A stretch of DNA of 64,000 nt from a virus. The notes under the pieces are model-generated. The model was not told the origin of the DNA and ran no database searches. It saw only the letters and a list, made by a program, of their open reading frames with translations. The stretch is taken from positions 1 to 64,000 of the IMG/VR virus record IMGVR_UViG_3300036770_002122, one strand, 5' to 3'. Each line of letters starts with the position of its first letter. Positions within the stretch are counted from its first letter, which is position 1. Below are positions 52,538 to 59,814 of this stretch, one piece after another. A program made the position numbers and the translations under genes.

Positions 52538-52975
52538 ATGGCAAATTTTGCTCAAGGCAAATATCAATGTAAGAATAAAGGTAAGTATATAGGCACACAT
52601 GTACCTAGATATCGTAGTGGTTGGGAATTAACATTTATGATGTTTTGTGATAACCACGATAGCGTGATATCCTGGGCTAGTGAATCTATACAAATACCCT
52701 ACAGAAATCCACTAACAGGCAAATCAACAATTTATGTACCTGACTTTTTTGTTCAATATCAGGATAAATATGGCAGACAACGTGCAGAACTTGTTGAAAT
52801 AAAACCTAAAAAACAAAGTCTAATTGAAAGTAGAACCGCTAGCGCAAGAGACAAGGCTGCAGTGGCAGTCAATCATGCAAAATGGGCAGCAGCAACAGCA
52901 TACTGTAAAAAAGCAGGATTAACTTTTAGAGTCATTACAGAGGATGATTTGTTCAGGAACGGAAGGAATAAATAG
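52538..52975 (+). CDS. Head completion nuclease (T4 gp4-like)
   Basis: YRSGWE, WASE, YVPDF, VEIKP, KWAAA, FRVITE. Confidence 0.9.
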   Translation: MANFAQGKYQCKNKGKYIGTHVPRYRSGWELTFMMFCDNHDSVISWASESIQIPYRNPLTGKSTIYVPDFFVQYQDKYGRQRAELVEIKPKKQSLIESRTASARDKAAVAVNHAKWAAATAYCKKAGLTFRVITEDDLFRNGRNK

Positions 52976-52990
52976 TATATAGGAGATCGT

Positions 52991-53722
52991 ATGCTATTTC
53001 TTCAAAATAAATACACATCTTGGTACTTTGCTATTATCAACAAAGCAAAAAAAAGAATAACTGAAGGGTATACTGAAAAACACCACATCATTCCGAAAAC
53101 ACTAGGTGGTAAAAATGATAAATCTAATATTGTAAAATTAACTGCTAGAGAACATTTTATTTGTCATTTACTGTTGACTAAAATGTTAGTTGATGATAAC
53201 AGACATAAGATGATATACGCATTACACATGTTGTCTAATGCATCTAACAAATTACATCAACGTTATGCACCCTCAAGCAAACTATACGAATATGAAAGAA
53301 AAATATTTGCAGAAACTCATTCGTTTAAGATGAAACAAAATCATCCATTAAAAAATCCATTACATAAACAATCGCATCAGTTGGGTATAGATAAAAGAGG
53401 TCCTACTTCTATCAAAGGTATCAAAAGATCAGAGTCGATGAAAGAAAAGATGCGTAACAGAGAATGGACTCAAAAAGCCCTTGATAATCGTCTTGCAAAT
53501 TGCCTTAAATCAGCAGAAGCAAGAAAAGGAAGCAAGTGGTCTTCCGACATGCATAAACGTAGATTCCAGCAATACGTCGAAAAGAACAAGCACCTATTTT
53601 CTCAAGTATTTTCATTAGAAGATCAAGGTTACAGCACCAGGCAAATAGCATTGAAAATGAATATATCCTGGGATAGAATAAATTACATCTTAACAAATAA
53701 ATACCGACTAAATACCCTATGA
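52991..53722 (+). mobile_element. Free-standing HNH homing endonuclease
   Basis: EKHHIIPKTLGG.N...N.V.LTAREHFICH; basic middle region; C-terminal HTH-like STRQIALKMNIS. Confidence 0.85.
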
Positions 53723-54226: not shown

Positions 54227-54859
54227 ATGAAAAGCCTAAAACAATACATTGCAGAAAGTGTACATTTATATGATGTAACTATTAAAATTGCCGGAGAAGT
54301 TGATAAAAACTTCCTAGATTTGTTCATTCATAATCTTAAGAAGTTTGATCCAGCAACTCCAATCACACCTAAAACACTTCCTATTGCAAAAGATGCATAT
54401 GGTTTTCCGGGTATGAGCAATGAACCAGTAACAGTGTTGCGTTGCAAATTCCGTTATCCTGCTACAGAACCAATGGTACAACAGTTAGCACAATTATTAG
54501 GCTATAATGTCAATTATGTACGTTTGGTCAATAGCGAATACGATGATAGCATCAACCGTGAAAGCGAAGAATATGCTAATCAAATGGAGCACAGTCCTGT
54601 ATTAACTCACACTGAAATGGAAGATGCGGGTGATGCTGCTAAAAAAGCAAGTAAGGATTATGGTAATTCATATTTAGATAGTATCAAAGCACAAAGTAAA
54701 GACGGTTTTCAAGGCAAAGATTTACAGTTTGATGGAAAGAGAACCCCAGACAGTTTTGATCCATTCAAGCCATACTTAGATGACAAATCAAAGGGTAATA
54801 AGAGTCCAATGACTAATATTACACGTCCTGCCAAGCCTAAAACAGGCGCAATGGCGTAA
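54227..54859 (+). CDS. Putative head protein with capsid-targeting-like N-terminus
   Basis: MKSLKQYIAE resembles the T4 IP targeting peptide MKTYQEFIAE; late promoter. Confidence 0.55.
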   Translation: MKSLKQYIAESVHLYDVTIKIAGEVDKNFLDLFIHNLKKFDPATPITPKTLPIAKDAYGFPGMSNEPVTVLRCKFRYPATEPMVQQLAQLLGYNVNYVRLVNSEYDDSINRESEEYANQMEHSPVLTHTEMEDAGDAAKKASKDYGNSYLDSIKAQSKDGFQGKDLQFDGKRTPDSFDPFKPYLDDKSKGNKSPMTNITRPAKPKTGAMA

Positions 54860-54870
54860 GAGGTTTTATC

Positions 54871-57800
54871 ATGGAATTTAAGAAATTTTTAGAATTAGTA
54901 AATGAGGCTGAGTCAACAGCCGAAAAAGATGATAAAGCCAAAAAAGCAGGCGAAGAAGTCACTAAAGATATTGAATATGATGAAGGTCATAAAGGTAGTG
55001 ATGACGAACGTGCTGAAAAAGCAGGCAAAAAAGTTGCCGCTGATATCAGATACGATGATAAGAAAGATAAAAAGAAATCATTAAAAGAATATTTTGAAGA
55101 AACTGAACAAGAAATTATTAATGAAGGTCAGTTTCCTATTCCAGTAGTTGGTCCAGACAATAAACCAATTGCTGGCCAATCAGGCTTTTTAAACGTAAGT
55201 GTTCCAGGACAAGCAGGCGTAGCAGTCAATGACATGCTGCGTAGATTAGGTGCAAGAGGTTTAAGTATAATTCTTCCACCAAATAGAATTCAACAGCAGC
55301 AACAGCAACAAGCATTGGCTGCTGCTAAAAGAGCATCTGTACAAACTTCAGGCAAACAAGTTGCTGAAGAAACTGTAGATGAAGGCATTGATGATGTTGT
55401 CAAATTAGGTACAAAGTACGGCGACGATATTGCTAAACAATTTAGTAACTTTGCTAGCGGATTTAAAAATCCACAAGGTGCAATGAATTTACCAAATCAA
55501 TCATTAGCATCAAAAGCAGGTGCAGCAACATCAAGAGGCGGTCCTGCAATAGGGGCAGGCGCCGGTGCAGCAGGCATGGCTGCATTAGGTGGTGACGATA
55601 AACCTGCAGCAGATAATAAACCGGCAGCCGTCGCAGCAGACAATAAACCAGCAGCAGCGGCACCCGCTGCACCAGAGGCTCCTGCTGCTCCAGCAGAGCC
55701 TGTCGCTCCAGAGGCACCTGCTGTAGATACAGCACCTCCTGCTCCACCATCTGACGAAATTGATAGAATTCAACAATTGGCTGGTATGAGCGATGAAGAA
55801 AAATATGGTAAGGTAGGAGCAGAGATTCGTAAATTAGATCCTGAAGCCTATAAAAATAGACCAAGAGATTATCAAGGTAATATTGATTTATTAAACAAGT
55901 TAAGAGCGCAAAAAGCAGATGACACCACTGCACCACCTGCAGCAGATACTAAAGCAGATGATAAGCCAGCAGACGCAAAGGCTGATGAAAAACCAGCAGA
56001 TGCAGCAGACGCAAGTGATGAATTAGAACCTGTAACTGTTACCGGTAAGAGAACACAACCTGCTGATCAAGATAAAGAAGGTGACGCTGAATTAGGTCGT
56101 TTACTAAATTTATCTGGCGCAAATACCTATGATGAATTAGGTAATTGGTTAAAGAATAGAGATAAGCCTGCAGGAAGCACTGAAGAACCAAAAGCAGCAG
56201 AGCCGGCAAAAGAACCAGAATCAAAACCTGAAGAACCAGCCGTTGACGCAGCAGGGGAAGAACCAGCCGTTGACGCCGCCGGCGAAGAACCAGCACCCGC
56301 TGCTGCAATTGAACCTAAAACTTCTTATAGAGTTGTTGATCCGTCGACCGGCAGAGCAAGAAATGTTTCAAAAGAAAAATATGATCAAATGGTTGCAAGA
56401 GGCCAAATTGATAAAGATAAAGGTTTAGACTATCAATTTAAAGTCAGAGACCCAGATGGTTCAATTAGAACAGTAAAACAAGGTGATCCAGATTGGCAGA
56501 AGTATGCTGATCAGGCAGAAAAAACTGTAGCATCAAATTACAATCAATTACAAGGCGAACCAGAAGGCGAAGAAGGCGAAGAAGGCGAAGAGAAATCAGG
56601 TAGACCAAGTTTGTTTAGAAGATTATTCAACATCGGCAAAGACGATGAAGGTTATTATCTAGGTAAAAAGCGCGGTCGTGATAATGCTCCAGATGATACT
56701 GAAGAAAAGTCAGAACTATCTGAAGGTAAACTTGCTGAAAAGTGGGAAGGCGATGTTAAAGTTGAACCAACTGGCGAGTATAAAAATAAAACAAAAGCAC
56801 AATTACAGGCAATGTTGGCACGACTACATAAAACTGGTCCTCATAAGAAGGGCAGCAAAGAAGCCAAACAGCAAAGTCAAATTAATTTTGCATTACGTGC
56901 CAAAGGTGGTTGGAAGAAAGGTGAAGGCGCAGCAATGAAATCTGTAGAAGAAGATGCTACAGCAGCACAGCCAAGCAAACTACAGCAAAGACATCAAGAT
57001 AACTTTGCTGCTAAACAACAAGCAGCACATAGTAAACAAGATAGTCAAGCAAAAGATTATCTAGCATCAAAAGGTGTAAGCGATCAAAATGCAGCAAAAC
57101 TAATGGCTAAACCAATGAGAGAAGAAAAAGTCGATGAAAAGTTTGCAAGCCAACAGCAAGCAAAATTAATGTACGCAGCAGCAGGCGATAAAAAAGTCGC
57201 AAAGAAAACTGGCGTAAGTCAAGACGTAGCAAAAGAATTTATTAAAAAGAGTCATGGGCAGAAAGTAAGCAAACTACCCAAGAAAGTAAAAGAAGCAGAA
57301 ATTCCAAAGTCAGGCCCAGATTATGGTGCAGGATTAGGCGCTGGTCGCAGCGACAACGTATTGGAGGCAAAGCCGGATTTCATCGATCTTGATAAAGACG
57401 GTGATAAGAAAGAATCAATGAAGAAGGCAGCAGCCGACAAAAAGAAAAAGAAGGTAAATGAATCTATGAGCAATCTATTAAAAGCAGCATATAGCGAAGG
57501 CTATGTACACGGTCTACGTGAGCAACCATGCCGCGTAAAACACTACCAAGATATGGAAGAAGCAAAGCATTACTTTGAAGGTTACAAATGTGGCCTAGAA
57601 GAATGCTATGGACTCGTTCCAGGTCGCGGCTATGTTGACGAAGAATCATCACAAGATGTTGTAGACAACATGGCAAGTTTCGGTGCAGTAGGTGTTGAAG
57701 AAAATACTAATCAAAACATGGCAGCAGTTCCCGTGCAGAAGGCACAGGCTGGTCAAGTAAACACTTCAGCAACCAATCCTGCTCCGCAACAAAATGTACC

Positions 57801-59814
57801 AGTAAAGCCAACTCCAACTGCAATGCCACAGCAGCCACAAATTAATGTCGGCGGTGTACCTGCAACTAAACAAGATGGCTCATCAAACATGGGTGCTGTA
57901 ATGCAAAGCCGCGCAAACTTAAGCAATATTGGCCAGCAAGCAGCACAACAAATGCAAGAAGATGATTTAGATGAAATGGATAAAGGTGATTGGTTGAAGC
58001 ACAAAGCAAAAACTACACCAGGTGACACATTTAAGGCATTTGGTCAAACATTCAAAGATAAAGACGTTTCAGAAACATATGCATTTGAAGATTTAGAACA
58101 ACAATTAAACGCTTTATTAGAAAATAAAGTTGTTAATGAAGGTCTTTCGGTATCGATGTCAACTGGGCAACAAGGTAGCCCAGACAGCGTAAGCGTAACT
58201 GCTACAGACGGTGATAGTGAAAAACTATTATCATTCATTAAGCAAGTAGGTTTGGGCGGTTTATCAGATGCAGAACCAATTAATACTCCTGCTGAACCAG
58301 CAGTTGTTGCAACAGTAAGTGATTACGGCGCGCCTAAATTCAGCGGTCATGAAATGCCAAGCATGGATGATTTGCTATCAAAATTAACAGGCATCGAATC
58401 ACATGACGATCATGGTCATGATCATGGGCATGGTGATGAAGAATCAACATGTAACGAATGCGGCATGATGGAAAGTTCATGCGGCTGCGAAAAAAAAACT
58501 GAAGAAGTTTTAGAAACTACAGTTGAAGCGCAGGTAAAATCAGATCAACTTGACGAAGCAGCACCTGCATTAGCAGCACTAGGTAGATTAGCAGGTCTTG
58601 CAGGACGCGCAGCATTAGCAAATCCTGGTAAGGCTGCTATGCTTGCAAAGCGTGCCGCAAGCGCATTCAAAAAAGATAAAGAAGAAGTAGACGAAACCGA
58701 AACATTAGATCAACGCGAATTTATGGTCGCTGAAGATGACGGTGAAGGCTATGAACAAAGTCAAGCAGATGCAGGCAAGATTGATAGCGCATTAGCATTA
58801 AGCGGCGCATCAAAGGGCGGCGCAACTAACGAAGATGCCATGGATCTAGGCTTAGGCGGATCAATGAAAGATATGATGTCAAAATTAGGAGACATTGAAA
58901 ATAAATCAATGTCAACTAATACTTCAAATGACACATCATCATATACTGTAGATGGCAAACCAGCAACTAAAGATGAATATGATAATGCTATGAAGAATTT
59001 CAAGATGCCAACAATGCCAACAATGCCGACTATGCCAAAAATGCCTAACATGCCAGCAGGTATGGAACTTCCTGAATTGCCAGAACTTCCTGATTTATCT
59101 GATTTAGGCATGGGCGCTGCTGGCGGTGATGACAATGTAAGCATGTCAAGACAAGAATATAATGATCTTATCAATGCAGCATTACCTGGCGTAACTGTTA
59201 CAGGCAAAAGAGTAGGTGGCGACGATGAGTTGCAACCAGTAACTATTGCTAGCAAAAAGAGAGAATTGCCTGGAAGTGATGATGAGTTACAACCAGTAAC
59301 TATTCAATCAAAGAAGCGTGAAATGCCTGCAGGTGATGACACATTTGTAGCAAAAGCAGATGATGCTGAAATTGCAAATATTAAAAAGTCACTAGACGAC
59401 ATGATGAAAGATATCATGCCTAGAATGGCAGGTCGTGACCAAGATTGGTTAGACGCTCAACAAGATCAACAACTAGCAACACAAGGTGCTGCAGGAGATT
59501 GGTTCAGAAGTGCATTAGGTAGAGGGGCAAATTTAAATGATCCTAATACTAGAGCAAAACTTGATCGTCTTGCTAAGAAAGCACAAACTAATGAGCAAGA
59601 AAAGTTAGATGAATGGGCAAATGATGCAGGTCAAAAAGGCACAGATGCAGCATTCACCCGTGATACAGACTTTATGACTCAAACTATCAGCGGTGGATTG
59701 AACAAGCCTAAGTCAACAGGTCAAACTACAATCCCTGTTATTGCTGGTCAAGAAGCAAGAGAAGGCGACGAAGATGTGCAAGCCTGGAAGAAATTAGCAG
59801 GTCTAGCGAAGTAA
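54871..59814 (+). CDS. Giant modular protein, putative head-internal/ejection polyprotein
   Basis: 1647 aa, low complexity; more than 20 hydrophobic-x-E sites; internal repeats; TonB-box-like motifs; LAG motifs. Confidence 0.55.
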   Translation: MEFKKFLELVNEAESTAEKDDKAKKAGEEVTKDIEYDEGHKGSDDERAEKAGKKVAADIRYDDKKDKKKSLKEYFEETEQEIINEGQFPIPVVGPDNKPIAGQSGFLNVSVPGQAGVAVNDMLRRLGARGLSIILPPNRIQQQQQQQALAAAKRASVQTSGKQVAEETVDEGIDDVVKLGTKYGDDIAKQFSNFASGFKNPQGAMNLPNQSLASKAGAATSRGGPAIGAGAGAAGMAALGGDDKPAADNKPAAVAADNKPAAAAPAAPEAPAAPAEPVAPEAPAVDTAPPAPPSDEIDRIQQLAGMSDEEKYGKVGAEIRKLDPEAYKNRPRDYQGNIDLLNKLRAQKADDTTAPPAADTKADDKPADAKADEKPADAADASDELEPVTVTGKRTQPADQDKEGDAELGRLLNLSGANTYDELGNWLKNRDKPAGSTEEPKAAEPAKEPESKPEEPAVDAAGEEPAVDAAGEEPAPAAAIEPKTSYRVVDPSTGRARNVSKEKYDQMVARGQIDKDKGLDYQFKVRDPDGSIRTVKQGDPDWQKYADQAEKTVASNYNQLQGEPEGEEGEEGEEKSGRPSLFRRLFNIGKDDEGYYLGKKRGRDNAPDDTEEKSELSEGKLAEKWEGDVKVEPTGEYKNKTKAQLQAMLARLHKTGPHKKGSKEAKQQSQINFALRAKGGWKKGEGAAMKSVEEDATAAQPSKLQQRHQDNFAAKQQAAHSKQDSQAKDYLASKGVSDQNAAKLMAKPMREEKVDEKFASQQQAKLMYAAAGDKKVAKKTGVSQDVAKEFIKKSHGQKVSKLPKKVKEAEIPKSGPDYGAGLGAGRSDNVLEAKPDFIDLDKDGDKKESMKKAAADKKKKKVNESMSNLLKAAYSEGYVHGLREQPCRVKHYQDMEEAKHYFEGYKCGLEECYGLVPGRGYVDEESSQDVVDNMASFGAVGVEENTNQNMAAVPVQKAQAGQVNTSATNPAPQQNVPVKPTPTAMPQQPQINVGGVPATKQDGSSNMGAVMQSRANLSNIGQQAAQQMQEDDLDEMDKGDWLKHKAKTTPGDTFKAFGQTFKDKDVSETYAFEDLEQQLNALLENKVVNEGLSVSMSTGQQGSPDSVSVTATDGDSEKLLSFIKQVGLGGLSDAEPINTPAEPAVVATVSDYGAPKFSGHEMPSMDDLLSKLTGIESHDDHGHDHGHGDEESTCNECGMMESSCGCEKKTEEVLETTVEAQVKSDQLDEAAPALAALGRLAGLAGRAALANPGKAAMLAKRAASAFKKDKEEVDETETLDQREFMVAEDDGEGYEQSQADAGKIDSALALSGASKGGATNEDAMDLGLGGSMKDMMSKLGDIENKSMSTNTSNDTSSYTVDGKPATKDEYDNAMKNFKMPTMPTMPTMPKMPNMPAGMELPELPELPDLSDLGMGAAGGDDNVSMSRQEYNDLINAALPGVTVTGKRVGGDDELQPVTIASKKRELPGSDDELQPVTIQSKKREMPAGDDTFVAKADDAEIANIKKSLDDMMKDIMPRMAGRDQDWLDAQQDQQLATQGAAGDWFRSALGRGANLNDPNTRAKLDRLAKKAQTNEQEKLDEWANDAGQKGTDAAFTRDTDFMTQTISGGLNKPKSTGQTTIPVIAGQEAREGDEDVQAWKKLAGLAK

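Follow-up and report, generated by a model that had tools for sequence, protein, structure and literature searches.

The DNA considered here, referred to as the window, is a stretch of 64,000 nucleotides (positions 1 to 64,000 of the IMG/VR virus record IMGVR_UViG_3300036770_002122) and is part of the genome of a T4-related jumbo myovirus. On its plus strand, positions 54871-59814 hold an open reading frame (ORF) that encodes a modular, low-complexity protein of 1647 residues (P0002), a member of a large metagenomic jumbo-phage family. What sets this protein apart is a set of four short motifs of the type L-x-P-V-x-V-T-G-K-R, which resemble the TonB boxes of TonB-dependent transporters. Motif 1 (56017-56052, residues 383-394) stands by itself, while motif 2 (59176-59211, residues 1436-1447), motif 3 (59224-59262, residues 1452-1464), and motif 4 (59281-59319, residues 1471-1483) form a C-terminal cluster, all on the plus strand. 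All four were found by translating this one ORF, and a six-frame regular-expression scan of the 93,197-base contig found the motif in no other frame. What surrounds the motifs? The first is preceded by a low-complexity tract of Asp, Lys, Pro, and Ala, the cluster by Met-Pro and Glu-Leu-Pro repeats (59005-59097, residues 1379-1409) that lie just upstream, and these tracts carry insertions and deletions among homologs. The first-pass annotation, made from the letters of the DNA, had reported four TonB-box-like motifs in low-complexity surroundings, and both observations were borne out; translating 56017-56052 and 59182-59322 gave exactly the peptides it had listed. DNA encoding P-V-T-V-T-G is its own reverse complement, and the minus strand of 56029-56051 and 59188-59210 also reads P-V-T-V-T; for this reason, pattern scans report each site on both strands.

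How closely do these motifs resemble genuine TonB boxes? A matrix was built by unsupervised expectation maximization from 60 transporters encoded in five Burkholderiales genomes, using the stretch of 60 residues that precedes the Plug domain in each and excluding the transporter that had been found through the phage pattern. The procedure recovered the TonB box, with the consensus A-T-L-[PAE]-[PA]-V-[TV]-V-T-[GA]-x-R. On this matrix, phage copies 1, 2, 4, and 3 score 25.5, 16.3, 13.1, and 10.1 bits, respectively; real boxes have a median of 18.9 bits, a 10th percentile of 13.0, and a maximum of 25.4. Shuffling the 1647-residue protein 2000 times gave a mean best score of 2.3 bits. Even a single site of at least 13 bits appeared in just 0.5% of the shuffles, and none of the 2000 had four sites of at least 10 bits. 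When 1.06 Mb of related phage loci were read in six frames, sites of at least 13 bits occurred only in this gene of the three closest relatives. By the scoring against a TonB-box profile and shuffled controls that the first-pass annotation had called for, then, the sites fall within the range of real boxes and above the shuffles, and as sequences the phage motifs are shown here to be statistically indistinguishable from real Burkholderiales TonB boxes.

The pattern is also a fairly specific one. A starting scan for DNA encoding L-P-x-V-T-V-T-G-K-R/S, made over one genome per species in 185,579 species, returned 34 matches, about the number expected by chance. The credible in-frame matches came from Burkholderiales only and comprised two TonB-dependent transporters (from Aquabacterium and Achromobacter), in which the motif stands at the position of the TonB box, and three small proteins. 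Of the eight places encoding P-V-T-V-T-G in 24.7 Mb of Burkholderiales DNA, seven lie 20-100 nucleotides upstream of a Plug domain. The small proteins (L093 of Caldimonas and L109 and L089 of Piscinibacter) are about 70-90 residues long; each has a membrane anchor or signal at its N terminus and contains one or two TonB-box-like motifs, which end in K-R or R-R. No link to TonB or ExbBD was found in their gene neighborhoods.

The six closest long homologs (1303-1687 residues, 48-83% identical) have three or four copies each by pattern, of which one to four reach at least 10 bits on the matrix. Across the C-terminal cluster of these seven sequences, the L, P, and V of each copy are invariant, joined by a second V and a T in motif 2, by D in motif 3, and by D and Q in motif 4; the aligned copy of motif 4 reaches 20-22 bits in most homologs. 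The flanks, by comparison, are variable and carry insertions and deletions. Motif 1, conserved in P0004, P0005, P0006, L003, and L004, is retained only in the four closest sequences. Fixed cores in shifting surroundings are typical of a short linear motif. The motif is thus an accessory module that is under selection and restricted to one small sub-lineage. The expectation that homologs would keep the motif while the flanks vary therefore held for the seven closest sequences but not for the roughly 110 shorter members of the family.

Is the motif peculiar to this family? When IMG/VR was scanned for DNA encoding P-V-T-V-T-G-K-R/S, the matches came from the family of ORF 54871-59814 and from other proteins. 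A second and unrelated family, with 421 homologs and a C terminus ending L-R-L-K-D-A-L-G, is found on contigs that reach about 35-37 kb. Sites of at least 13 bits are present in 100 of the 120 members listed, amounting to 355 sites with up to 11 per protein, and vary in number and spacing; tandem arrays are found, for example, at L251:5703-7577, L250:9251-11713, L243:7269-8702, L238, and L248. Ahead of the arrays, these proteins have Gly/Ala-rich hydrophobic N-terminal segments (as in P0124 and P0126), with a Pro-rich linker in one case. The layout, hydrophobic segment first and motifs after, matches residues 223-394 of the 1647-residue protein, where a Gly/Ala-rich hydrophobic segment (55537-55593, residues 223-241) and a Pro/Ala-rich linker (55594-55749, residues 242-293) precede motif 1. 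The gene cluster of the second family is arranged like the one in Caulobacter phage GB2A that ends in a "lytic tail protein," and because of this shared layout the analysis suggests that the second-family proteins are ejection proteins. The ejection, or internal virion, proteins of short-tailed phages are exemplified by T7 gp14-16 (PMC8954989). The likeness to those proteins lies in the GB2A-like gene cluster and the hydrophobic N-terminal segments; no homology between them and the second family was detected. The literature searched yielded no description of a role for TonB in ejectosome function.

A third protein (L244:2090-4987) is 965 residues long, Cys rich, and built around nine 18-residue repeats, each of which contains the motif as E-L-P-P-V-T-V-T-G-K-K with a Cys triplet after it. 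Proteins annotated as tape measures in Caulobacter phages match its C-terminal segment, as does the corresponding segment of GB2A gp065c (L260:5531-7273), the only cultured relative found. In GB2A gp065c, a hydrophobic Gly/Ala region is accompanied by a single V-D-E-I-V-V-T site like TonB boxes of the Caulobacter type (12.3 bits, P of ~0.006). A protein of phage DSL-LC04 (L261:2907-5186) shares the C-terminal segment of GB2A gp065c and carries five copies of a different 17-residue repeat, with no TonB-like site; other repeat motifs of this sort may target other host proteins.

What kind of protein carries the motifs in the window? The family includes 251 homologs of 905-2883 residues in a large protein database and at least 80 loci in IMG/VR. 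Common to all members are a short N-terminal tag, usually ending L-x-E-A, and, at the C terminus, a domain of some 70 residues that finishes with W-K-K-L-A-G-L. Here, the tag is about 12 residues long (54871-54906), ends V-N-E before Ala, and is a candidate capsid-targeting propeptide with a prohead-protease site, while the C-terminal domain (59602-59811; alignment A2, 33 sequences) ends W-K-K-L-A-G-L-A-K. Between these conserved ends the length varies from about 690 to 1690 residues among relatives by way of low-complexity insertions and deletions. A conserved 27-residue module follows motif 1 (56080-56160, residues 404-430; alignment A1) and is duplicated in homologs after the first C-terminal motif. 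A small DUF3008-like module (57148-57288, residues 760-806) matches phrog_16759 and phrog_25121, with PF11450 detected in one homolog. Otherwise the protein has few recognizable relatives. Neither the whole protein nor its C-terminal domain had a match by tblastn in 50,697 cultured phage genomes, a profile of that domain found nothing in PA5oct or Atu_ph07, no Pfam domain was present at an E value of ≤0.01, PHROG matches were weak, and solved structures offered no useful match. AlphaFold2 modeled the C-terminal 120 residues as helices only, at low confidence (mean predicted local distance difference test score of 59.7). Two smaller sequence elements may be mentioned. One, a Lys/Glu-rich unit some 20 residues long (A-E-K-A-G-K-K-V-x-K-D-I-E-Y-D), is repeated at the N terminus (54871-55080) and recurs just before the C-terminal domain in most family members (alignment A2), and L-A-G-[LIM] motifs are found inside the 1647-residue protein, at its very end, and in PA5oct gp281.

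The tag invites comparison with T4, in which a 10-residue capsid-targeting propeptide, cut after Glu by the prohead protease gp21, brings internal proteins into the head, from which they are later delivered to the cell (PMC9026906). Like the T4 internal proteins IPI-III and Alt (PMC9026906), the phage protein has an N-terminal tag of the shared type, of about 10-16 residues ending hydrophobic-x-Glu. It also has seven hydrophobic-x-Glu sites, which stand at module borders and are conserved in the seven closest sequences. Unlike the T4 proteins, with which it shares no sequence homology, it is far larger and modular, and its packaging and cleavage are putative. Several other late genes on the contig start with similar tags. 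A gp21-type protease (PF03420) was not found on the 93-kb contig, which covers about 27% of the genome; two relatives with the same protein family encode one, and one of these is a complete 524-kb genome. The 210-residue product of the gene immediately upstream (54227-54859, plus strand) is a homolog of PA5oct gp282 (BLASTP E value of 2e-6), and its N terminus also ends hydrophobic-x-Glu, as in the T4 capsid-targeting sequence. Given the T4-like tag, the gp282 homolog next door, and the gp21-type protease in relatives, the best reading of the carrier is that it is plausibly a packaged, prohead-protease-processed head protein. One further ORF beyond the window (87190-87762 of the contig, 190 residues) has a capsid-targeting-like N terminus and a weaker TonB-box-like site of 14.0 bits, which may be due to chance.

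The sheath protein of the phage (1192 residues) shares about 45% identity with its counterparts in Pseudomonas phage PA5oct and Agrobacterium phage Atu_ph07, and the gene order runs from sheath and tube through a second tube-like gene, a TnsA-like gene, an HNH endonuclease, a 159-residue gene, and the 210-residue gene to ORF 54871-59814 and a collagen-like fiber. PA5oct has the same order, and its gp282 and gp281 are annotated as virion proteins on the basis of electrospray ionization tandem mass spectrometry; ORF 54871-59814 shows no significant similarity to gp281, its positional counterpart. Within the tail gene block, positions 52538-53722 contain the TnsA-like gene, which has an endonuclease fold and is called "head closure" in relatives, and the HNH homing endonuclease.

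Can the motif say anything about the host? Leu at -3 and Pro at -1 relative to the first Val are invariant in the phage copies. This Leu-x-Pro flavor was found in 26 of 54 Burkholderiales boxes and in none of the 30 boxes from Kosakonia, Stenotrophomonas, Caulobacteraceae, and Acidobacteriaceae, which have flavors of their own. The motif thus hints at a Burkholderiales-like host, as far as a small sample of boxes and a phage G+C content of 37.7% allow. Whether flavor follows host could be asked of the cultured phages, though the test is a weak one because GB2A has a single Caulobacter-flavored site of 12.3 bits and DSL-LC04 has none.

Taken together, these observations favor one explanation over the others considered, at a probability of roughly 0.45. 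ORF 54871-59814 would encode the precursor of a head-packaged, protease-processed, T4-like internal protein, and one sub-lineage of the family would have acquired short linear motifs that mimic TonB boxes and serve in TonB-driven entry. During infection, the presumably disordered protein or its fragments would leave the virion through the tail. Exposed L-x-P-V-x-V-T-G-K-R strands would then add as beta strands to the C-terminal domain of the host's TonB in the periplasm, which is how the TonB boxes of transporters and colicins pair with it. The TonB-ExbB-ExbD motor, driven by the proton motive force, would pull on the phage protein, and with several boxes per chain the pulls could be repeated hand over hand, helping to bring the ejected protein and the leading DNA through the envelope. 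No TonB C-terminal domain encoded by the phage was found, so any TonB partner would be that of the host.

Several observations weigh against this explanation. (i) Some 110 shorter members of the family are without the motif, and none of the proteins of the complete 524-kb relative contains it; since most members do without it, the motif must be dispensable for the core role of the family. (ii) Lys-Arg or Lys-Lys after the Gly is far commoner in the phage copies than in real boxes, and this dibasic tail could indicate another partner or a protease site. (iii) The five genomes behind the matrix were reached by way of the phage-derived pattern, so the matrix represents the bacterial lineage that best fits the phage rather than bacteria in general. 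(iv) T4-type internal proteins are known to reach the cytoplasm, and exposure to periplasmic TonB is an assumption. The first-pass annotation had proposed that the phage packages proteins that engage host TonB, either to power entry or to titrate TonB against competitors. That proposal is partly supported: it gains from the motif match, the conserved cores, the comparison with shuffles, and the plausibility of packaging; it loses in that the motif is limited to a small sub-lineage.

The dibasic tail, mostly absent from real boxes, leads to the most serious of the alternatives: the motif might form a strand for some other partner, such as the capsid interior, the portal, the tail channel, or another periplasmic host protein, with its likeness to the TonB box being convergent. 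Strands of alternating Val and Thr are generic elements for beta addition, and the motif is present outside transporters in the three small Burkholderiales membrane proteins. The match, however, covers the lineage-specific positions as well (Leu at -3, Pro at -1), with scores up to the top of those of real boxes, and in the genomes tested a P-V-T-V-T-G sequence nearly always marks a TonB box. The motif is also common to three unrelated phage protein families, from phages that differ in genome size and gene layout, which argues against a phage-specific partner. All in all, a different partner is rather unlikely.

Could the motifs bind host TonB for a purpose other than entry? Ejected copies might titrate or block it, shutting down TonB-dependent uptake or excluding competing phages and bacteriocins. 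The same sequence evidence underlies this idea as underlies TonB-driven entry; a sponge would be well served by having many boxes on each chain and many chains in each capsid, and counter-competition modules, like this motif, are often accessory and lineage restricted. A mechanical role at the envelope is nonetheless the better fit to arrays that occupy an ejection-protein-like gene position, beside Gly/Ala hydrophobic segments and Pro-rich linkers, and titration is judged improbable. Slightly less probable still is a reading without any specific function, in which the motifs would be structural filler, or a piece captured from a transporter, that is carried along in a low-complexity protein evolving fast. 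The protein is indeed full of repeats and indels, and most of its relatives manage without the motif, but the cores stay invariant while the flanks diverge, the second family has retained 355 copies in varying number and spacing, and no other transporter-like sequence flanks the motifs.

That the ORF encodes the tail tape measure protein, with the motifs acting from the tail lumen rather than the head, is very improbable even though the ORF follows the sheath and tube genes and such proteins exit the tail first, into the periplasm: the length spread of ~690-1690 residues through low-complexity indels argues against it, no PHROG or Pfam tape-measure match was found, the N-terminal tag resembles a capsid-targeting sequence, and the contig encodes another protein with tape-measure and lysin matches, so this identity was rejected. 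The other protein, of 1215 residues, lies beyond the window (82825-86472 of the contig), has tape-measure and endolysin-like PHROG matches and a short N-terminal tag, and is the better candidate for the tape measure or a tail lysin.

The explanation based on TonB-driven entry can be carried beyond the window. One tentative generalization, more doubtful than the explanation itself, extends it to tailed phages whose hosts are probably freshwater Burkholderiales, among them jumbo T4-like myoviruses as well as phages represented by contigs of up to about 35-37 kb. On disordered proteins that are packaged or ejected, such phages would carry TonB boxes of the host type, singly or in arrays of up to 11, and would use TonB-ExbB-ExbD as a ratchet to reel in these ejection proteins together with the leading DNA. 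It has long been an open question by what means, and with what source of energy, ejection proteins and the first DNA get across the gram-negative envelope. If the proposal is true, phages draw directly on the TonB motor in the way that colicins and pyocins do, and the energized entry route is borne by the phage itself and not by the receptor. No description of a phage-borne TonB box was found in the literature searched; the one paper there that treats a TonB box together with phage virions concerns the box of FhuA in T5 infection. The motif arrays would represent a class of short linear motifs, so far overlooked, in putative virion proteins, and lineage-specific flavors of the motif could offer a new, sequence-only clue to the hosts of uncultured phages.

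How does the proposed system compare with those already known? The closest likeness is to the TonB box of transporters, the Burkholderiales form of which is T-L-x-P-V-x-V-T-G/A-x-R. The phage motifs share its residues at the informative positions, score within or at the top of the range of real boxes, and sit in sequence that may likewise be flexible. Unlike transporter boxes, they have no Plug and barrel downstream, number four per chain rather than one, and nearly always continue with Lys-Arg or Lys-Lys after the Gly, and their carrier protein lacks a signal peptide.

Group B colicins and S-type pyocins have a TonB box of their own in a disordered translocation domain. In the phage, too, a foreign protein would present a TonB box in a putatively unstructured region, presumably to be pulled by TonB-ExbBD. 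The phage protein differs from these bacteriocins in having no receptor-binding or killing domain, as judged by Pfam at an E value of ≤0.01 and by solved structures, and in carrying several boxes instead of one; its delivery would be by ejection from the virion, not by diffusion to a receptor. Finally, the g3p protein of filamentous phage binds TolA, and the proposal made here is similar, in that a phage protein would engage the periplasmic domain of an inner membrane protein linked to the proton motive force at the time of entry. The difference lies in the parts, with the Tol system, a folded domain, and a filamentous phage in the one case and the Ton system, a short linear motif, and a tailed phage in the other.

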